Source: a virus (lineage: Duplodnaviria > Heunggongvirae > Uroviricota > Caudoviricetes). From it: a stretch of DNA of 8,446 bases. Positions within the stretch are counted from its first letter, which is position 1; every line of letters starts with the position of its first letter. The notes below the pieces were generated by a model. That model searched no databases. It saw nothing but the letters and a program-made list of their open reading frames with translations, and had not been told where the DNA came from. Location: the IMG/VR virus record IMGVR_UViG_2740892235_000006. One strand, written 5' to 3'. A program made the translations under genes and the position numbers. Positions 1 to 8,446 of this stretch are shown here, in pieces.

Positions 1-1446
1 CCAATAAAGGTTTCTACTTTGCTGTCTTTGAATTTCTCAACAAGCAGATCACGAAATTCGTTAGCCATTTCTTCCTGCACCGCTTCCAGCTGAATAATGC
101 GCAGAACCAGTACAGGACGATCGCCAGTGATAATGCTGAGGCGTAATTTAAACGGACGTTCTTTCAGACCTTCAAACGGAACGCATTTAAATTCAAATGC
201 CACTGGCATAATGTCTTTGGTCTTCGCTTCGACAGACTCCATCAGGGAGCGTTTGCCGCTGAAGTCATTATCTTCAAAATCAGCGGTCTGGTTTGCTTCA
301 ATCGTGATTTTACGGACAGCCGCAGCCGCTTTTGTTGCCTGAATAGCGTCACCATTAGCATCAAAGCCCACAAGGTAGTCGGCCCAGTCTTCAATCCATT
401 CTGCCAGTGACTTCTGGGAGTTACGCTCGCCATTAACAGACAACAGAGCAGAGAACGGTGCTGTTTTTTTCAGTTTGAGAGTGGCGGTGTTATCTGCGTG
501 ACCTGGTTCATCAATAGTACCCAGGTTAAGCACACTGACTGCTCGCATATTATCGGCATCGATAAAGCAGCGGGTGCCTTCATCTGCAAGATCTTTAGAA
601 TAACGGGTAAAGTCATCGATGCTNNNNNNNNNNATTACGCTCGCCATTAACAGACAACAGAGCAGAGAACGGTGCTGTCTTTTTCAGTTTGAGAGTGGCG
701 GTGTTATCTGCGTGACCTGGCTCATCAATAGTACCCAGGTTAAGCACACTGACGGCACGCATATTATCGGCATCGATAAANNNNNNNNNNTGCCGCAGCC
801 GCTTTTGTTGCTTGAATGGCGTCACCATTAGCATCAAAGCCCACAAGGTAGTCGGCCCAGTCTTCGATCCATTCTGCCAGTGACTTCTGGGAGTTACGCT
901 CGCCGTTAACAGACAACAGAGCAGAGAACGGTGCTGTCTTTTTCAGTTTGAGAGTGGCAGTGTTATCTGCGTGACCTGGCTCATCAATAGTACCCAGGTT
1001 AAGCACACTGACGGCACGCATATTATCGGCATCGATAAAGCAGCGGGTGCCTTCATCTGCAAGATCTTTAGAATAACGGGTAAAATCATCGATGCTGGCA
1101 GTGGAAAGTGCACCACGGAAACGGAAGCGATTTAAATTAAATTTTTCCAGATCATGAATGCGGAAATTCTCAGGCAATGCCACAGCATCNNNNNNNNNNA
1201 CGATTTAAATTAAATTTTTCCAGATCATGAATGCGGAAATTCTCAGGCAATGCCACAGCATCGGCACCAATCTTACTGATNNNNNNNNNNGCGATTTAAA
1301 TTAAATTTTTCCAGATCATGAATGCGGAAATTCTCAGGCAATGCCACAGCATCGGCACCAATCTTACTGATAATTTCATTAACACCCTGAGCAGAAATAA
1401 GGGCATGGATTTGATTAATTGCGGTTGCGTCTAAGTTCTGAGACAT
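1..1446 (-). CDS. Phage leftward-operon protein of unknown function, at least 270 aa; 5' end at 1446, 3' end beyond the window start; present as overlapping tiles across four N10 gaps
   Basis: ATG is the reverse complement of 1444-1446, with an SD-like TGAGGA 6 nt upstream. One continuous minus-strand frame runs through tiles 1291-1446, 792-1189 and 1-623, reading [60 protein letters not shown]...[49 protein letters not shown]...KVETFIG. Tiles differ only by synonymous changes. Length and the adjacent 120-aa gene loosely recall a yfdP-yfdQ-type prophage pair, but this is unverified recollection. Confidence 0.7.
319..1095. repeat. Three overlapping near-identical tiles (319-623, 635-780, 792-1095) separated by N10 gaps at 624-633 and 781-790
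   Basis: Direct comparison of the flanks of each N run; the few differences are synonymous in the minus-strand reading frame. Confidence 0.9.
1127..1353. repeat. Three overlapping tiles (1127-1189, 1200-1262, 1291-1353) around N10 gaps at 1190-1199 and 1281-1290
   Basis: The string gcgatttaaattaaatttttccagatcatgaatgcggaaattctcaggcaatgccacagcatc recurs after each gap. Confidence 0.9.
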
Positions 1447-1498
1447 AATAAGTCCTCACTATATAAAGATATTCAGTGATGAGATAAATAATCGGTTA

Positions 1499-1709
1499 AT
1501 TAAGAACGATATTAATGACCTGCTGCGCGGAGTTTTCCGTCAGGTTCACCGGCAAGAGTCAGTAATTGTCCCTGGTCTTCCTGCAGAATAGTCAGGNNNN
1601 NNNNNNAGTTTATTAAGAACGATATTAACGACCTGCTGCGCGGAGTTTTCCGTCAGGTTCACCGGCAAGAGTCAGTAATTGTCCCTGGTCTTCCTGCAGA
1701 ATAGTCAGG
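1499..1709. repeat. Two overlapping tiles (1499-1596, 1612-1709) around the N10 gap at 1597-1606
   Basis: Near-identical sequence with one substitution that changes the terminal codon of the 120-aa gene (AAGH* versus AAGR*). Confidence 0.9.
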
Positions 1710-2180
1710 CGACCACCGCGATTGACATACATCGGCGTTTCGGTGGTGTCTTCTTCGGAAATTTTCCCGCGGTTAGTCGGGCGAACATATGAGAGTTTGT
1801 GTTTGATTTTCACACGGTTCTCATCAAATGGTTCGATTTCCAGGTTGAGTGAGACCTTACCTTTGGTTTTCGTGTTCATCACACCTGAAGCGACTTCACT
1901 GAGAACTGCGCCGATTTTGGTTTCAAATACGCCGCCGTCCAGCTCCCCGATAAATGCCTGCACATCNNNNNNNNNNGACATATGAGAGTTTGTGTTTGAT
2001 TTTCACACGGTTCTCATCAAACGGTTCGATTTCCAGATTGAGTGAGACCTTCCCTTTGGTTTTCGTGTTCATCACACCGGAAGCGACCTCACTGAGAACT
2101 GCGCCGATTTTGGTTTCAAATACGCCGCCGTCCAGCTCCCCGATAAATGCCTGCACATCAGTACTGCGTTCGCTAGCCAT
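1625..2180 (-). CDS. Phage hypothetical protein, about 120 aa once the duplicated tile is collapsed; interrupted by the N10 gap at 1967-1976
   Basis: ATG is the reverse complement of 2178-2180, with SD GAGGAG 7 nt upstream. Stop is the reverse complement of 1625-1627. Protein reads MASERSTDVQAFIGELDGGVFETKIGAVLSEVASGVMNTKTKGKVSLNLEIEPFDENRVKIKHKLSYVRPTNRGKISEEDTTETPMYVNRGGRLTILQEDQGQLLTLAGEPDGKLRAAGR. Segment 1978-2159 repeats 1785-1966, and a second allelic 3' end lies at 1512-1596. Confidence 0.75.
1785..2159. repeat. Two overlapping tiles (1785-1966, 1978-2159) around the N10 gap at 1967-1976
   Basis: Direct comparison; a handful of substitutions. Confidence 0.9.
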
Positions 2181-2228
2181 TTTGCTGCTCCTCATCATAT
2201 CGACCCTGCAAGGTCGGTTGGTTTCTCC

Positions 2229-2317
2229 ACAAAACAGAGAAGAACACCTGCGGTGGCAGCCGCCCGGATGGATTGGGTTATGAGCCCGTCGCCCGGTGAT
2301 GCTCTTCTCTGTTTTGT
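2229..2317. repeat. 16-bp inverted repeat (15 of 16 match), acaaaacagagaagaa at 2229-2244 and ctcttctctgttttgt at 2302-2317, with a 57-bp GC-rich spacer
   Basis: Seen directly; it abuts the terminator U-tract and lies in the 5' leader of the 120-aa gene. Confidence 0.6.
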
Positions 2318-2363
2318 AAAAAGAGCGGTACCAGCCGGAAGCAAGTGTACAAACTGGTACCGC
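2316..2363 (-). terminator. Candidate rho-independent terminator on the leftward transcript, upstream of the 120-aa gene
   Basis: Perfect 10-bp inverted repeat gcggtaccag (2325-2334) and ctggtaccgc (2354-2363) with a 19-nt loop. On the minus-strand RNA the 3' arm is followed directly by UCUUUUUAC (reverse complement of 2316-2324). Confidence 0.5.
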
Positions 2364-2786
2364 CAAAGCAGTGGCTGTTGTGGTGGGGTTGTCACTCAGG
2401 CGTATGGTCAACCTGACAATCCGGTGTCCTCAACGGGGAAAGAGTAACCCCGCCATACTTACCGCCGCGCCATTTCGCGGATTACCACAACGCTGAGAGC
2501 ACTTAGCCAGTTACGGCACCACACTTTGTCGTGGTTCCATAAATGCCCTCATCGTTGCACCCTGGTCTCTTCCCAGGTGTCAAACCGAACCGCCACGCTG
2601 GTTAGGCGTCTTATCAGCATCATCATTGACTTGCACATTCCGGCTACCTGGTTTGTTTGCCCGAGCAAGGAGTGGATTGTCCCCTTTAACGTCCCCAGAC
2701 CGCTAACGACGCATGTGCCATACGCCGTGTTACAACCAAATTTTGTTAGGACCTTGTTTGTTGGTCTGGAAAGAAAGATAAAATGA

Positions 2787-2834
2787 AATTGCGCATTATG
2801 CAAGTGTTTTGTTGCGAGATGCGCAATATGATGG
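2787..2834. promoter_or_regulatory. Candidate left operator region (OL-like)
   Basis: Shares motifs with the cI-cro intergenic region: TTGCGCA (2789-2795 versus 3616-3622) and the exact 9-mer CGCAATATG (2822-2830 versus 3653-3661). Contains the palindrome TTGCG-N5-CGCAA at 2812-2826. No clean -35/-10 pair could be resolved. Confidence 0.45.
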
Positions 2835-2840
2835 GTGATG

Positions 2841-2860
2841 AAAAGCCACCTTCTGGTGGC
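2841..2860 (-). terminator. Candidate intrinsic terminator just downstream of the repressor gene
   Basis: Stem gccacc (2845-2850) and ggtggc (2855-2860) with loop ttct. On the minus-strand RNA the stem is followed by UUUU (reverse complement of 2841-2844). It starts 22 nt past the repressor stop. Confidence 0.45.
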
Positions 2861-2881
2861 TAATTGATGAGGAGGTCGGGG

Positions 2882-3574
2882 TTAATTGTGTCGCTTAAGG
2901 GTTTGTGACTGACTGATTAAGACCTTCCCAAAGACCATAAACCGGTGTTCGTTTTCGCTGGTAATTCCCCATTCACGGTAAATCTGGTTATCAGAAATCA
3001 CCAGTAGTTTGTCAGGTATCATTTGCAGTCGTTTGACATAAATTTTATCATCAAAACCAAACACATAGATACCATCCCCATCAAACTGATTGATACTGAT
3101 ATCAACGAAGATGAGATCTCCTGGCTCAATGGTTGGACACATACTGTCCCCACGAACGTTGATAACTTTAATGTGATTGGCTGGTCGTCCTCCAAACATC
3201 GATACAGCATTATCAGTTATGTATTCAATGGCATGAATCACATCAATGACATCACCGCCCTGGATAAGGCCATTTCCCGCACTGGCACTGACATCCAGCA
3301 TTTCAATACGGAATACATCCTTCACCTGCGCAACATCCTCACCAGTACTGTTTTTACATACAGTATTACTTTTGAAGTCTGAGGTAAAGAGATCTGCAAT
3401 ATCAACACCTAAGCTCCTGGCAATATTACTCAGGGCTTGTTCAGTGAATTGTTTCTGCTTACCTGTTTCCAGGCGTGAGATATTCGCCGCATCCACTCCT
3501 ATTGCTTCAGCGAGATCGGCGATTTTCATGTTCTTCGCCTGGCGAAGTTGTCTGACTCGATTTCCTATGTTCAT
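2882..3574 (-). CDS. CI-type phage repressor, 230 aa: N-terminal XRE-family helix-turn-helix plus C-terminal S24 (LexA-like) autopeptidase
   Basis: N-terminus MNIGNRVRQLRQAKNMKIADLAEAIGVDAANISRLETGK is a typical HTH. C-terminal half carries the S24 signature GDSM (catalytic Ser) and a downstream YVKRL (Lys). It is divergent from the cro-like gene. No SD precedes the ATG. Confidence 0.9.
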   Translation of the reverse strand: MNIGNRVRQLRQAKNMKIADLAEAIGVDAANISRLETGKQKQFTEQALSNIARSLGVDIADLFTSDFKSNTVCKNSTGEDVAQVKDVFRIEMLDVSASAGNGLIQGGDVIDVIHAIEYITDNAVSMFGGRPANHIKVINVRGDSMCPTIEPGDLIFVDISINQFDGDGIYVFGFDDKIYVKRLQMIPDKLLVISDNQIYREWGITSENEHRFMVFGKVLISQSQTLKRHN

Positions 3575-3671
3575 GCGTTTATTACATTTCTTTATTGCGC
3601 GTTAAGCAAATCAACTTGCGCAAAATATTTGCGTGAAATAATATGCTTATCACGCAATATGTGGAGGTTAT
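3575..3671. promoter_or_regulatory. Divergent operator/promoter region (OR-like) with candidate pRM (leftward) and pR (rightward)
   Basis: Repeated TTGCG/CGCAA half-sites, including the palindrome TTGCGCAA at 3616-3623 and TTGCGTG-N15-CACGCAA at 3629-3657. Candidate pR: -35 TTGCGC 3616-3621, 17-bp spacer, -10 TAATAT 3639-3644, then SD GGAGG 3663-3667. Candidate pRM on the minus strand: -35 TTGCTT (rc of 3604-3609), 17-bp spacer, -10 TGTAAT (rc of 3581-3586), placing the start at the A of the repressor ATG. Confidence 0.55.
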
Positions 3672-3932
3672 ATGCAATCACCATTACGAAATGTGCGTAA
3701 GGCGCACGGATTTACTTTGCAGCATGTTGCTGCGGGTGTTCAGGTTAATCCAGCGACGCTGAGTCGTATTGAGAGACTGGAACAAATTCCATCTATCGAT
3801 CTGGCAGAGCGTCTGGCCAATTTTTTTAAGGGAGAAATCAGCGAAATGCAGATTCTCTATCCTGCTCGCTTTCAATCTAGTCAAAACCGGAATGAGTTAA
3901 AACCACAGGAAAAGGAGGTAAGCCGTGGGTAA
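3672..3932 (+). CDS. Cro-like XRE-family helix-turn-helix regulator, 86 aa
   Basis: First gene of the rightward operon, divergent from the repressor. HTH-like segment FTLQHVAAGVQVNPATLSRIERLE. SD GGAGG 4 nt upstream of the ATG. Its 3' end overlaps the next gene by 8 nt. Confidence 0.8.
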   Translation: MQSPLRNVRKAHGFTLQHVAAGVQVNPATLSRIERLEQIPSIDLAERLANFFKGEISEMQILYPARFQSSQNRNELKPQEKEVSRG

Positions 3933-4476
3933 GCATCACTGGAAAGTGGAAAAACAGCCTGAGTGGTACGTGAAAGCGGTCAGAAAAACTATCGCGGCGT
4001 TGCCGGGTGGTTACGCTGAAGCAGCTGAGTGGCTGGATGTAACAGAGAACGCTTTATTCAATCGCCTTCGTGCCGATGGCGATCAGATTTTCCCGCTGGG
4101 ATGGGCAATGATTTTACAGCGCGCGGCTGGCACTCACTACATTGCGGATGCTGTCGCACAGTCTGCTGATGGGGTGTTTGTATCGCTTCCTGACATTGAG
4201 GAAGTAGAGAACGCCGATATAAACCAGCGCCTGCTGGAAGTCATCGAACAGATCGGGAGTTACTCAAAGCAGATTCGTTCGGCAATCGAAGATGGGGTAG
4301 TGGAGCCACACGAGCAGACAGCAATGAATGATGAGTTGTATCTGTCAATTTCGAAGCTCCAGGAGCATGCGGCACTGGTCTACAAAATTTTCTGCGCTCC
4401 AGAAAAGAGTGACGCCCGCGAGTGTGCAGCTCCGGGCGTCGTGGCGTTTTGTGTCTGTGGAGAAACTAACGCATGA
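3925..4476 (+). CDS. CII-like phage regulatory protein (resembles the phage 186 CII / CP76 type), 183 aa, GTG start
   Basis: Strong SD AAGGAGG 6 nt upstream of GTG 3925. Position is immediately after cro. Segment ALFNRLRADGDQIFPLGWAMILQRAAGTHYIADAVAQ resembles the 186-CII-type family from memory. Confidence 0.65.
   Translation: MGKHHWKVEKQPEWYVKAVRKTIAALPGGYAEAAEWLDVTENALFNRLRADGDQIFPLGWAMILQRAAGTHYIADAVAQSADGVFVSLPDIEEVENADINQRLLEVIEQIGSYSKQIRSAIEDGVVEPHEQTAMNDELYLSISKLQEHAALVYKIFCAPEKSDARECAAPGVVAFCVCGETNA
4409..4457. terminator. GC-rich hairpin with pyrimidine/U-rich flanks on both strands inside the 3' end of the CII-like gene; candidate bidirectional terminator
   Basis: Stem gacgcccg (4411-4418) and cgggcgtc (4433-4440), extendable by 3 bp inside the loop. 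Minus-strand RNA continues ACUCUUUUCUG. Plus-strand RNA continues GGCGUUUUGUGUCU. Confidence 0.4.
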
Positions 4477-5636
4477 ACAGTTTAACGGCAAATAACCGTT
4501 TGTCGCAACAGCTGGTGGTCAGTGTCGCTGCACACCTGTTGTTACGGCATGAATGCAGATTACCAAATCACCTGGCTGTAAGTAACCACAGAGAACTTTA
4601 CCTGACTGTGGGGGGCGAGTTGTGCAGGAACTTAACCGCTGGTTTCGTGACGGAAGAGGACTTTATGTTCATGTTATTCGTTGGGAGCCAGAAACACAGC
4701 GCGTTATCTATCTTCGCAAAGACTACCCGCATGAGTGCTTTAGTCCTTTGTGGAAATTCAGGCGTGATTTTGTTGAGTGTGAAGGACCAGCAGCATATTG
4801 ATTCTGCAATTCCGGGACGTTACACTGTACCGGCACCTTATAAAGCGGGTGCCGGGATTGGCGTCCTGAAATTGATTACTGAGCATAACCGCGCTCATGC
4901 GGTTTTTTCGTGTCATGAGCATTGCTACGCCCAAATTATGGTGGGGCGTACAGGGCCGACTTCGGTCGGGCCGGGTTCGGTAGTCTCCGGTAACGCCAAC
5001 CCTGTACGTCTCACCACCTCTGTGATTGGCGTCCCATGTGGTGAGTTTTCTAAAAAACTGACTACCGGGGCTGTCACTATGACTACTCTCCCAACCCTCT
5101 CTCAACCTGAAATTGCCATCGTTGATGGTCAGGCTGTTACATCTTCTTTGGCTGTTGCTGACTTCTTCTCTAAACGTCATGACGATGTTCTGAAAAAGAT
5201 CCGCATTTTGGATTGTTCTCCAGAGTTTTGTGCCCGCAATTTTGCGGAGACATCAATTTTGGTACGCCAGCCCAACGGCGGTACTCGCAAACTTCCCTGC
5301 TATCAAATCACCCGCGACGGTTTTGCGTTTCTTGCCATGGGCTTCACTGGTAAACGTGCTGCCCGGTTCAAAGAGGCATACATCAACGCCTTTAACCTGA
5401 TGGAGAAACAGCTTTCAAAGCCCGCTGTACCGAGCGACGTTGCACATAACGCCAGCGTTCTCTGTTCCTACATTTCATCAATTCATCAGGTCTGGCTGCA
5501 GCAGCTTTATCCTATGTTGGCAAAAGCCGAATCTCCGCTGGCTGTTAGCTTATATGACTATATTAATGATGCTTCGGCGCTGGCCTGCCTCATAAATTTG
5601 TCGCTGAACCCTTCAGAGGCAAGGGGGCGCAAATGA
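4473..5636 (+). CDS. 387-aa ORF with a C-terminal Rha-family phage regulatory domain (residues about 203-387) and an N-terminal 200 aa of uncertain coding status
   Basis: ATG 4473 overlaps the CII-like stop (ATGA). The segment from M203 (ATG 5079), MTTLPTLSQPEIAIVDGQAVTSSLAVADFFSKRHDDVLKKIRIL...YQITRDGFAFLAMGFTGKRAARFKEAYINAFNLMEKQL, matches the Rha signature (FGKRHDNVLRDI-like, MGFTG). The upstream 600 nt is open in frame but rich in rare codons (tta, ggg, aga, agg). A G6 run at 4610-4615 connects to a second open frame. Confidence 0.6.
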   Translation: MNSLTANNRLSQQLVVSVAAHLLLRHECRLPNHLAVSNHRELYLTVGGELCRNLTAGFVTEEDFMFMLFVGSQKHSALSIFAKTTRMSALVLCGNSGVILLSVKDQQHIDSAIPGRYTVPAPYKAGAGIGVLKLITEHNRAHAVFSCHEHCYAQIMVGRTGPTSVGPGSVVSGNANPVRLTTSVIGVPCGEFSKKLTTGAVTMTTLPTLSQPEIAIVDGQAVTSSLAVADFFSKRHDDVLKKIRILDCSPEFCARNFAETSILVRQPNGGTRKLPCYQITRDGFAFLAMGFTGKRAARFKEAYINAFNLMEKQLSKPAVPSDVAHNASVLCSYISSIHQVWLQQLYPMLAKAESPLAVSLYDYINDASALACLINLSLNPSEARGRK

Positions 5637-5857
5637 TCCGGAATATTTTCAAACGTTTTACCAATCAGACTTTCCGTTGTCCTCGTCCGGGTCAGTGGTA
5701 CACCACGCCTGCAGGGCATGTTCTACGTGTTAGCCTGGTTGACCGTGAATGTCAGAAGGTGATTTGTGAACCGCTGGGCCGTAATTACCGCGTCAGTATG
5801 CCGCTTATAGCCTTTCGCTCCGGAAAAAACATGAAGCATCTCGGAGGTGCAGCATGA
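5633..5857 (+). CDS. Hypothetical small phage protein, 74 aa
   Basis: ATGA overlaps at both ends (with the Rha-domain ORF upstream and the replication gene downstream). G-rich SD-like stretch upstream. Protein MIRNIFKRFTNQTFRCPRPGQWYTTPAGHVLRVSLVDRECQKVICEPLGRNYRVSMPLIAFRSGKN; no family recognised. Confidence 0.5.
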   Translation: MIRNIFKRFTNQTFRCPRPGQWYTTPAGHVLRVSLVDRECQKVICEPLGRNYRVSMPLIAFRSGKNMKHLGGAA

Positions 5858-6672
5858 GTATGGAGCTGATGGTTAAAGCGATGAAAATTCGAGTGGGTAA
5901 TCCATTGCGAAAACTGGTTCTGATCAAGCTGGCTGATAATGCCAGCGATCAGGGTGAGTGCTGGCCCAGCTACCAGCATATTGCTGACCAGTGCGAGATT
6001 AGCAAACGTTCTGTGATGAATCATATTGCGGCCCTTTGTGAGTCCGGGCTGGTAAAAAAAGTCACCCGGAAAGGTGAAAAAGGTAACTCAAGTAATATCT
6101 ATCTCCTTCATCTTGATGGTGCAGGAGATTCACTAGGGGGTAGTGCAAATAATTCACTATCTGGTGCAGCAAATTCACCAGGTAGTGCAGGAGTTGCACC
6201 AGGGGGTAGTGCAGGAGATTCACCCAGAACCAGTCACTCTTTTGAACCAGTCAAAGAACCAGTCAATGAACCAATAGCTGTTGGTGCATCTGCTGATGAG
6301 TCTGTGCGAGTTCGTTCAAACCGACCGGAATACTCTCCGGAGTTTGAGCAGGCATGGCTGGCATATCCCAAACGTGCTGGTGGCAATTCAAAATCTGCAG
6401 CCTTCAAAGCCTGGAAAGCCCGTTTGAATGAGGGGGTAAACCCCGAAACCATGCTGGAAGGTGTGAAACGCTACGCGGGCTGGGTATCTGCGATGGGTAA
6501 CAGCGGCACACAATTTGTGAAACAGGCTGTCACGTTCTTTGGTCCGGATCGTCATTTCGAAGAATCCTGGGAAGTTCCTGCGGTATCTGTAGCCGGACGT
6601 GAGGACCCGTACTTCAAAGCCAGTTACGACAACGTGGACTACAGCCAGATCCCGGCAGGATTCAGGGGGTGA
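5854..6672 (+). CDS. Replication initiation protein (lambda O-like organiser): N-terminal winged-helix/HTH domain, central Gly/Ser/Ala-rich linker, C-terminal domain; 272 aa
   Basis: SD GGAGG 6 nt upstream. N-terminus MSMELMVKAMKIRVGNPLRKLVLIKLADNASDQGECWPSYQHIADQCEISKRSVMNHIAALCESGLVKK looks like the HTH of phage replication proteins. Position after cII and Rha is typical. The linker is encoded by direct repeats. Confidence 0.7.
   Translation: MSMELMVKAMKIRVGNPLRKLVLIKLADNASDQGECWPSYQHIADQCEISKRSVMNHIAALCESGLVKKVTRKGEKGNSSNIYLLHLDGAGDSLGGSANNSLSGAANSPGSAGVAPGGSAGDSPRTSHSFEPVKEPVNEPIAVGASADESVRVRSNRPEYSPEFEQAWLAYPKRAGGNSKSAAFKAWKARLNEGVNPETMLEGVKRYAGWVSAMGNSGTQFVKQAVTFFGPDRHFEESWEVPAVSVAGREDPYFKASYDNVDYSQIPAGFRG
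6118..6275. repeat. Iteron-like direct repeats inside the O-like gene, preceded by an AT-rich stretch (6081-6117); candidate replication origin
   Basis: Five imperfect 16-19-bp repeats with consensus GGT(AGT)GCAGGAGATTCAC starting at 6118, 6139, 6163, 6181 and 6205, then GAACCAGTCA three times (6228-6237, 6244-6253, 6257-6266) plus a partial fourth (gaaccaa, 6269-6275). Confidence 0.4.
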
Positions 6673-6674
6673 TC

Positions 6675-6767
6675 ATGAGTCTTTTGAATGAAGTTCAGAA
6701 ATTCATTGAAGCCCATCCGGGCTGTACTTCCGGAGACATTGCGGATGCTTTTTACGTGGGGGCTTAA
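6675..6767 (+). CDS. 30-aa ORF (MSLLNEVQKFIEAHPGCTSGDIADAFYVGA), possibly the remnant of a longer gene cut at a module junction
   Basis: Starts 2 nt after the O-like stop and its TAA overlaps the methyltransferase ATG. Its last 15 nt are shared with the different gene found upstream of the second methyltransferase copy. Confidence 0.3.
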   Translation: MSLLNEVQKFIEAHPGCTSGDIADAFYVGA

Positions 6768-8047
6768 TGAGTAATAAATATTGCCAGGCGCTGGTAGAAC
6801 TGCGGAACAAACCAGCCCATGAACTGAAGGAAGTGGGCGATCAGTGGCGCACGCCGGACAACATTTTCTGGGGAATTAACACCTTGTTTGGTCCGTTTGT
6901 TCTGGATCTGTTCACTGACGGTGATAACGCCAAATGTGCCGCGTATTACACGGCGGAAGACAACGCGCTGGCGCATGACTGGTCAGAACGTCTTGCGGAG
7001 CTTAAAGGTGCTGCCTTTGGTAATCCCCCATACAGCCGCGCCAGTCAGCATGAGGGGCAATACATCACCGGCATGCGTTACATCATGAAGCATGCCAGTG
7101 CCATGCGTGATAAAGGCGGGCGCTATGTTTTCCTGATTAAAGCTGCCACCAGCGAAGTGTGGTGGCCGGAAGATGCAGATCATATTGCTTTTATTCGCGG
7201 GCGTATTGGTTTTGAACTGCCTGTCTGGTTTATCCCGAAAGACGAGAAGCAGGTACCGACAGGCGCTTTCTTCGCTGGTGCTATTGCTGTTTTCGACAAG
7301 ACCTGGAAGGGACCGGCAATCAGCTACATCGGGCGCGATGAACTTGANNNNNNNNNNCAGAACGAAATAATTTTCTGGCGCGTCGTGAACGGTGTTTACG
7401 GAAAAGCAGCAAGCGGGCTGCATCAGGTGAAGAGTGGTATCTGTCAGGGAATTACGTGGGGGCTTAATGAGTAATAAATATTGCCAGGCGCTGGTGGAAC
7501 TACGGAACAAACCAGCCCATGAACTGAAGGAAGTGGGCGATCAGTGGCGCACGCCGGATAACATTTTCTGGGGAATTAACACCCTGTTTGGCCCGTTTGT
7601 TCTGGATCTGTTCACTGATGGTGATAACGCCAAATGTGCTGCGTATTACACGGCGGAAGACAACGCGCTGGCGCATGACTGGTCAGAACGTCTTGTGGAG
7701 CTTAAAGGTGCTGCCTTTGGTAATCCCCCATACAGCCGCGCCAGTCAGCATGAGGGGCAATACATCACTGGCATGCGTTACATCATGAAGCATGCCAGTG
7801 CCATGCGTGATAAGGGCGGGCGCTATGTTTTCCTGATCAAAGCTGCCACCAGCGAAGTGTGGTGGCCGGAAGATGCAGATCATATTGCTTTTATTCGCGG
7901 GCGTATTGGTTTTGAACTGCCTGCCTGGTTTATCCCGAAAGACGAGAAGCAGGTGCCGACAGGAGCGTTCTTCGCTGGTGCTATTGCTGTTTTCGACAAG
8001 ACCTGGAAGGGACCGGCAATCAGCTACATCGGGCGCGATGAACTTGA
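6752..8047. repeat. Two near-identical methyltransferase tiles (6752-7347 and 7452-8047) with different upstream contexts, separated by the N10 gap at 7348-7357
   Basis: Identity begins at the shared string ttacgtgggggcttaatgagtaataaata; sequence further upstream differs completely between the two copies. Confidence 0.85.
6767..7347 (+). CDS. Phage Dam-type N6-adenine DNA methyltransferase, copy 1, truncated at the N10 gap 7348-7357
   Basis: NPPY catalytic motif (GNPPYS) encoded at 7022-7033. Reads MSNKYCQALVELRNKPAHELKEVGDQWRTPDNIFWGINTLFGPFVLDLFTDGDNAKCAAYY. Typical nin-region position after the replication gene. Confidence 0.8.
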
Positions 8048-8120
8048 GGCATGTGGTGAGGCCTTTCTGGCGCAGGTTCGCCAGCAGGCGGAAAAACTGG
8101 TCAGGGAGATGGCGGCATGA
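7467..8120 (+). CDS. Phage Dam-type N6-adenine DNA methyltransferase, copy 2, complete at 217 aa
   Basis: Same protein as copy 1 with two amino-acid differences (A to V, V to A) and several synonymous changes. NPPY motif present. The track ORF 7434-8120 starts at an upstream in-frame ATG; the start at 7467 matches copy 1. Confidence 0.85.
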   Translation: MSNKYCQALVELRNKPAHELKEVGDQWRTPDNIFWGINTLFGPFVLDLFTDGDNAKCAAYYTAEDNALAHDWSERLVELKGAAFGNPPYSRASQHEGQYITGMRYIMKHASAMRDKGGRYVFLIKAATSEVWWPEDADHIAFIRGRIGFELPAWFIPKDEKQVPTGAFFAGAIAVFDKTWKGPAISYIGRDELEACGEAFLAQVRQQAEKLVREMAA

Positions 8121-8446
8121 CGACGTTAACTCAATGCCAGCAGCAGGTGCTGGATATGCTGATTTCTTACCAGCAAGAACGTGGCTTCCCGCCAACTAAT
8201 CAGGAGGTGGCAACCATGCTGGGATACCGTTCAGTGAATGCAGCGGTGGAGCATCTTCGCGCACTGGAGAAAAAAGGCGTCATCACGATAAANNNNNNNN
8301 NNTCAGAAAGAGCGTGGCTTTCCGCCAACCAATCAGGAGGTGGCAACCATGCTGGGATACCGTTCGGTGAATGCAGCGGTGGAGCATCTTCGCGCACTGG
8401 AGAAAAAAGGCGTCATCACGATAAAGCGTGGCGTGGCCCGGGGGAT
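8117..8446 (+). CDS. LexA N-terminal DNA-binding-domain-like (winged helix) protein, partial; runs off the window end and crosses the N10 gap at 8293-8302
   Basis: ATG 8117 overlaps the methyltransferase stop (ATGA). [59 protein letters not shown] aligns by eye to the LexA N-terminus ([58 protein letters not shown]). Segment 8303-8425 repeats 8170-8292 with substitutions and extends to ...KRGVARG. Confidence 0.65.

Follow-up and report, generated by a model that had tools for sequence, protein, structure and literature searches.

The stretch of viral DNA analysed here, IMG/VR record IMGVR_UViG_2740892235_000006 (8,446 nt, taken at its full length and referred to below as the window), is interrupted by eight short runs of undetermined bases (N), around which the same sequence recurs in slightly different versions. 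Almost certainly, the window is the scaffold of an unresolved three-copy repeat, produced by a short-read assembler working on a de Bruijn graph with k = 81 from three co-resident prophages of Escherichia coli. Its nine segments derive from three different prophages, their limits follow the fork-and-merge rule of a k = 81 graph, and all of them are tiled exactly by whole nodes of such a graph.

A gap scan of the window returned eight N runs, at 624-633, 781-790, 1190-1199, 1281-1290, 1597-1606, 1967-1976, 7348-7357 and 8293-8302. All are exactly 10 nt long, as the initial annotation had stated, and they delimit nine segments, numbered S1 to S9 from left to right. In an all-against-all comparison of these segments, the overlaps with the predecessor are ungapped and show 95.9-100% identity; S2 is entirely contained in both S1 and S3, and S4 in S5. 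Expressed in reference coordinates, the sequence restarts 204, 249, 63, 81, 103, 183, 690 and 123 nt earlier at gaps 1 to 8, respectively, the 690-nt restart being composed of 596 nt of homologous sequence and 94 nt specific to another prophage. The restarts described in the initial annotation are therefore real, but their measured range is 63-690 nt instead of the 60-600 bp claimed. Similarly, its assertion of diverged overlapping copies at every gap stands as regards the overlaps, which are found everywhere, but not as regards the divergence, since the S3, S4 and S5 overlaps are 100% identical except for the first base of S4. Relative to a single-copy locus, the surplus amounts to 1,696 bases, and approximately 20% of the determined bases of the window are redundant.

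Pairwise inspection of the overlaps reveals 43 differences, of which 38 are synonymous, four non-synonymous and one non-coding. Because synonymous changes predominate to this extent, the overlapping copies are genuine selected alleles, and not the product of sequencing errors. The predominance of synonymous differences had been correctly recognised from the outset, and both examples quoted at that time hold: in GDAIQA (yfdQ) it is the Q and A codons that differ, and in ALVELR (methyltransferase gene) the V and L codons.

The identity of the locus is apparent from S7, which over 5.37 kb shares 99.9% identity with a prophage present in several complete genomes of Shiga-toxin-producing E. coli (STEC). 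The annotation order there is yfdR-yfdQ-yfdP, a CI-like repressor, a cro-like gene, ymfL, Rha/Ant, a small open reading frame (ORF) and an O-like replication protein, and it continues in the relatives with an N6-adenine methyltransferase, a LexA-like regulator and RusA. The Q antiterminator, transfer RNA (tRNA) genes and stx2 are located about 5 kb downstream in those relatives. On the basis of this near-identity, together with the gene order in stx2-bearing prophages, the window is assigned to an Stx2a-converting lambdoid prophage of E. coli, termed prophage A, of which it represents the early/immunity region.

Mapping was carried out on the genome of strain 10 (NZ_CP146507.1), which holds prophage A together with two further relatives, prophages B and C. 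On prophage A, S9 matches at 100% and S1, S5, S6 and S7 at 99.4-99.9%; for S2, S3 and S8 the identity drops to about 97.3-97.5%, with the initial 94 nt of S8 left unaligned. The better match for S8 (99.9%, one mismatch) is found 3.2 Mb away in the same genome, in prophage B at the icd/e14 site, which shows the same gene order with the addition of perC upstream of the methyltransferase. Prophage B also provides 100% matches for S2 and S4, first bases included. S3 fits neither A nor B and corresponds at 100% to the yfdQ gene of prophage C at the argU/DLP12 site, a prophage found first in strain RM10466 and then in strain 10. The yfdQ-yfdP and methyltransferase/LexA-like genes are 96-99% identical among the three copies, and up to five places per complete genome are found for these segments.

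The count of prophage copies in a complete genome, with strain 10 as proxy, thus gives three versions at three separate loci, one copy at each, and the prophage A locus is colinear. This agrees with the earlier rejection of real tandem duplication. At first sight, the repeated sequence does look as if yfdQ, yfdP and the methyltransferase gene had undergone short tandem or segmental duplication on one molecule, with small unsequenced gaps in between, and nothing beyond this raw appearance speaks for such an arrangement. In the closest complete genomes (99.9% identity over 5.4 kb) the locus is single-copy and colinear and the arrangement is absent; every extra copy finds a 99.9-100% match in another prophage; and a sequenced junction is available at none of the eight joins, each of which is an N10 run.

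The allelic composition of the segments was resolved by labelling their nodes, which identifies S2 and S4 as pure B, S3 as pure C and S9 as pure A, with S1, S5, S6, S7 and S8 mixed. S1 (1-623) is the first node run and keeps an 80-nt prefix; it carries C alleles up to position 317 and A alleles from 318. S2 (634-780) is a single 147-nt node of prophage B, starting on a B-specific base, and S3 (791-1189) is the yfdQ allele of prophage C. S4 (1200-1280) is the 81-nt arm of a bubble caused by one single-nucleotide polymorphism (SNP) and belongs to prophage B: the SNP base plus 80 nt equals k. S5 (1291-1596), which comprises the start of yfdQ and the end of yfdP, is mostly of A type and includes one C-type SNP node at 1363-1371. 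S6 (1607-1966) is a chimeric walk within yfdP, with B alleles first and A alleles afterwards. S7 (1977-7347) opens with 112 nt in which B alleles are followed by C alleles, and its segment positions 113-5371 match the Stx2a prophage A of strain 10 at 100%. S8 (7358-8292) represents prophage B, with the 3' end of perC at 7358-7467, the full methyltransferase gene at 7467-8120 and the start of the LexA-like gene. It contains one 81-nt SNP arm of prophage A (8063-8143); the methyltransferase gene of S8, the sole complete ORF in which alleles are switched, differs from the B allele by a synonymous change alone and encodes the same protein. Finally, S9 (8303-8446) is a single 144-nt node of prophage A within the LexA-like gene. 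Over its span, the scaffold covers 93.8% of the prophage A path and 25.7% of the B path; for prophage C the coverage is 78.6%, counted over the first 1.4 kb of C.

In a de Bruijn graph, two paths fork at the first k-mer with a different last base and rejoin as soon as they have a whole k-mer in common again. The limits of the segments follow exactly this behaviour. All nine segments end precisely 80 nt past the last position that distinguishes them from one of the two other alleles: the last B-versus-C difference for S2, the last difference from A for S3, and the last A-versus-B difference for both S7, which ends inside the methyltransferase gene, and S9. Any other end distance accounts for at most one segment end, and the chance rate of the 80-nt rule is 0.6% of candidate positions in these zones. 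The starts are equally regular, as all eight internal segments begin with the fork base itself, and 80 or more bases upstream of it are identical in the context of that allele. S1, in which the first variant is located at base 81, is the sole segment with a prefix of k-1 bases. From this pattern it follows that only the first node of the record was written in full, the others being deprived of their first k-1 bases. A k-mer rule of this kind is nothing that biology would be expected to obey, and its validity at all boundaries further weighs against real duplications on one molecule, an explanation to which practically no credence is given.

The rule was examined further by simulation. A k = 81 graph was constructed from the three prophage regions of strain 10, giving 135 nodes, and a segment was counted as tiled when it equalled an exact concatenation of whole nodes, each deprived of its first 80 nt (S1 being taken with its prefix). 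Under this definition, the k = 81 graph tiles all nine segments exactly, and S2, S4 and S9 turn out to be single nodes. With other values of k between 61 and 101, the number of tiled segments ranges from zero to four. Window positions 1 and 8446 both coincide with node ends and, for this reason, the 8,446-nt window probably represents a complete scaffold record instead of a part cut from a longer one.

The initial annotation had proposed two or three related prophages in the source genome or, alternatively, strain variants. The former part is borne out, with three prophages co-resident in one genome; the latter fits less well. In principle, the same graph artefact would be generated if the alternative alleles stemmed from several strains present in a mixed sample or metagenome, given that a de Bruijn graph cannot separate paralogues from strain variants. 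Nevertheless, the nodes that tile the nine segments all originate from three prophages of one complete genome, and many complete STEC genomes carry the copies together. Furthermore, the first 94 nt of S8 belong to the perC gene, which occurs solely in the context of the B and C prophages, and thus point to a different locus instead of a variant of the same one. Taking these observations into account, a strain mixture is regarded as very improbable.

The three-prophage scaffold is best explained by the following sequence of events. The source genome contains three related lambdoid prophages, namely A (Stx2a), B (icd/e14) and C (argU/DLP12), whose paths through the graph fork at each distinguishing SNP and merge again after 80 identical bases. 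Unable to resolve the tangle, the assembler walked through it, sometimes switching copy inside shared nodes. The allele-specific nodes of B and C would be linked by read pairs to the same neighbours as the shared nodes of A, and the estimated distances would be negative or close to zero, so that the left-over nodes would be placed in order at the same locus, separated by minimum buffers. With no graph path between them, such nodes would be concatenated without their first k-1 bases and with a minimum buffer of 10 N in between. Appending node sequence without the k-1 overlap is what would make the segments start on a variant base.

The behaviour expected from this mechanism resembles that of Pebble, the scaffolding module of Velvet, in which neighbours are identified by read pairs and, where no path exists, are merged as if a path had been found, with Ns placed between them; many of these N buffers are very short (PMC2793427). 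Both the merging of pathless neighbours across N buffers and the use of prefix-less node sequence are consistent with the start-on-variant pattern. On the other hand, the length of the Pebble buffer is a distance estimate according to the same paper (PMC2793427), whereas here it is fixed at 10 N, and other graph assemblers are possible candidates. We infer that the assembler was Velvet or a derivative, and that read pairs were used.

Joins of similar appearance would also be obtained if contigs had been assembled separately, ordered on a reference prophage and linked by 10-N spacers. Such fixed spacers are indeed used by contig-ordering tools and for database submission, and in one paper every sized gap was changed to 10 N for the National Center for Biotechnology Information (PMC3530497); moreover, the order of the segments roughly follows position on prophage A. 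However, exported FASTA contigs normally keep their k-1 prefix, which in the window is seen in S1 alone, with the eight later segments starting on a variant, and pieces of 81 and 144-147 nt usually fall below the length cut-offs applied at contig export. Tiling on a reference is accordingly judged improbable, if somewhat less so than a mixture of strains. Of the earlier proposal that contigs had been laid onto one locus, the multi-allele tiling is confirmed; the joins themselves, with the prefix confined to S1, were most likely made inside a k = 81 assembler.

Some points weigh against the reading of the window as a k = 81 scaffold of three prophages. Strain 10 is a proxy for the source genome and not the source itself. 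Both the assembler and the value of k were deduced from the sequence alone, as gap-spanning patterns matched no source record in the viral and genomic contig collections, where a literal N may escape such patterns. A graph with k = 79 also tiles four of the nine segments, which shows that partial fits can arise by chance. According to its manual, Velvet writes gaps shorter than 10 bp as 10 N, a rule for which the literature search gave no confirmation. Finally, the allele combination of S5 is found verbatim in other genomes, which means that not every switch of allele need be an assembly chimera.

The last point defines how far the mixed segments can be interpreted. Among 5,426 complete E. coli genomes, S1 is found verbatim in none (best match 99.5%), and the same is true of the head of S7 (best match 99.1%), as expected of chimeric walks. 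The S5 combination may be genuine, and the chimera calls for S6 and S8 are defined by comparison with strain 10 alone. The broader proposition that all mixed segments are absent from nature was rejected, S5 existing naturally, and the claim of absence from genomes is confined to S1 and the head of S7. With these qualifications, the five mixed segments are best described as probable allele-switching walks inside shared nodes, those in S6 and S8 being seen against strain 10 only and that in S5 being possibly natural.

The consequences for gene content differ along the window. On the minus strand, the apparent yfdQ region (1-1446) consists of five overlapping fragments from three alleles and not of one gene with duplications, as indicated by the annotation of the relative and by mapping. 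The yfdP gene (1512-2180, minus strand), in reality 363 nt long, is spread over S5, S6 and S7 with duplicated parts. On the plus strand, the prophage A copy of the N6-adenine methyltransferase gene (6767-7347) is cut by gap 7, and a 235-aa ORF at 6767-7474 reads through the Ns to yield a methyltransferase-perC fusion. Of the 50 ORFs with a length of 50 aa or more, 13 run through Ns. These gap-crossing ORFs, the 235-aa fusion included, are artefacts, exactly as the initial annotation had held. Since the segments themselves switch allele, ORFs that do not cross a gap can be mosaic too. The intact, trustworthy part of the window is the node specific to prophage A (2292-7218), which bears the repressor, cro-like, ymfL, Rha/Ant and O-like genes. 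It includes the intact CI-like (XRE/S24) repressor gene of prophage A (2882-3574, minus strand) and the equally intact early-right genes (3672-6672, plus strand), that is, the cro-like gene, ymfL, Rha/Ant with the C4 and isrK RNAs, the small ORF and the O-like gene.

Within this node, several additional features were observed. Rfam matches above the gathering score were obtained on the plus strand for isrK (4833-4909) and for the C4 antisense RNA (4934-5021), both of which fall within an ORF (4473-5636) that relatives list as a 387-aa 'Rha family' protein. This ORF is probably over-extended at its 5' end, and a start near 5079 (MTTLPTLS...) is likely for the real anti-repressor, as in modules of the P1 immI or Gifsy isrK type. 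The O-like gene (5854-6672) contains, on the plus strand at approximately 6120-6240, several imperfect GGTAGTGCAGGAGATTCAC-like direct repeats, each about 18-20 nt long; they encode a G/S/A-rich linker and resemble the iteron-type origin repeats inside lambdoid O genes. Half-sites of the TTGCGCA/ATTGCGCA type are repeated on either side of the repressor gene, at 2790-2830 and 3590-3660, and look like the left and right operators (OL and OR). Visual inspection alone suggested a putative leftward promoter, PL (TTGCAT-16-TTATCT, minus strand, about 2800-2775).

The repressor gene and yfdP are separated by about 700 nt in which no credible ORF is seen. As minus-strand RNA, this leader folds far below shuffled controls (z = -4.9, 20 shuffles). 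Within this leader, which belongs to the leftward early transcript, lies an RNA-like element about 180 nt long (approximately 2556-2741, minus strand), recognised by conservation and covariation and unrelated to the gaps. The element is 78-89% identical to unannotated DNA in the unrelated phages phiV10, SPN1S, 66FD, EC.W1-9, P1, D6, mEp390 and mEp460, and its invariant core GGUAGCCGGAAUGUGCAAG is found in at least 120 viral contigs, comprising lambdoid, P1-like and epsilon15-like phages.

The structure of the element was assessed with a hand-drawn model on 35 distinct copies. The model comprises four stem-loop elements, one of them a two-part helix, with five helices in all when the pseudoknot is included. 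The pseudoknot joins a hairpin loop to a downstream segment through CACC/GGUG, replaced by AACC/GGUU in four copies, that of the window among them. In the alignment, 96.2% of the paired cells can form a pair, compared with 88.1% in shuffles and 28-44% when the partners are slid. Both sides change in 13 of the 30 pairs, and the covariation score is 0.259 versus 0.117, with none of 500 shuffles reaching 0.259. The strand of the element is fixed by invariant G-U pairs.

The genomic context of the copies varies with the type of phage. In lambdoid phages, the element occurs just downstream of the repressor gene or of a PL-like promoter; P1-like phages carry it 14 nt after tRNA-Met and upstream of ban; other copies, among them that of the epsilon15-like SPN1S, are found 67-130 nt upstream of tRNA-Arg. 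A tRNA on the same strand adjoins the element in 46 of 128 copies, and a tRNA on the opposite strand only in none of the 128. A survey of the first downstream ORFs was too noisy for any gene association. In SPN1S (JN391180.1), positions 1317-1390 of the minus strand correspond to an unannotated tRNA gene (Rfam, 71 bits), on the same strand as the element and about 125 nt downstream of it.

Two further observations concern the sequence downstream of the element in the window. On the minus strand, at about 2363-2316, a 10-bp hairpin (GCGGUACCAG...CUGGUACCGC) is followed by UCUUUUU and has a terminator-like appearance; with its 19-nt loop, it was missed by the scan tool. It overlaps a near-perfect hairpin of about 22-25 bp located just before the ribosome-binding site of yfdP (2227-2317, minus strand). 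Moreover, window positions 2385-2480, a second part of the leader, are 75% identical to another unannotated intergenic stretch of P1 (5574-5667), located beside tRNA genes between dmt and tRNA-Asn, near which only weak, sub-threshold hits to permuted transfer-messenger RNA (tmRNA) were obtained.

A search of Rfam 15 gave no match at the element, either in the window or in four diverged copies, and a search of the element for tRNA and tmRNA (ARAGORN) gave no identification. The core sequence was not found in a literature search, and the P1 literature likewise gave no identification. The put RNAs of HK022 and HK639, which lie just after the early promoter and bring about terminator read-through dependent on the zinc-binding domain of the RNA polymerase beta' subunit, were considered as a candidate and rejected, as the profile of the element finds nothing in either phage; in addition, the element is unrelated to the annotated putL-like RNA of HK639. 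The put architecture is about 70 nt with two stem-loops (PMC9378689), whereas the element extends over about 180 nt and includes a pseudoknot. A promoter-proximal position comparable to that of the put RNAs is compatible with the location of the element between the repressor gene with its operator-like repeats and the terminator-like hairpin. That the element constitutes a real, functional RNA family so far undescribed is a serious possibility, if slightly less than an even chance. As for its role, a promoter-proximal, cis-acting function in antitermination or RNA processing would be a reasonable guess; antitermination specifically is a predicted role of rather low probability.

The tiling of the window finds its closest parallel in the false segmental duplications that arise from mis-assembled divergent alleles in diploid genomes (Kelley & Salzberg 2010, PMC2864568). 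As in that case, slightly different versions of one stretch have all been kept side by side, typically across a gap. There the versions are diploid haplotypes, whereas the window combines three paralogous prophage copies of a haploid bacterium, in tiles of only 81-935 nt with limits set by k = 81. Near-identical modules of co-resident lambdoid prophages collapse or tangle in short-read graphs, with contig breaks as the usual outcome. Fragmented STEC assemblies show such breaks, but in the window the stray allele nodes have also been scaffolded into the same record. The tiling is thus a bacterial, paralogue-driven counterpart of the diploid false duplications and not a biological feature.

The duplications are absent from the genome and consequently carry no biological meaning; their importance is one of quality control. 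The record presents yfdQ, yfdP, one methyltransferase copy and the LexA-like gene in broken or doubled form, and gene counts, ratios of non-synonymous to synonymous substitution rates (dN/dS), inferences of recombination or calls of 'tandem duplication' based on it would be wrong. The k-1 boundary rule offers a quick, read-free test for artefacts of this type in other records. The tiling itself leaves no novelty, and the RNA-like element of the leftward leader is the only potentially new biology in the flagged span, which merits separate treatment.

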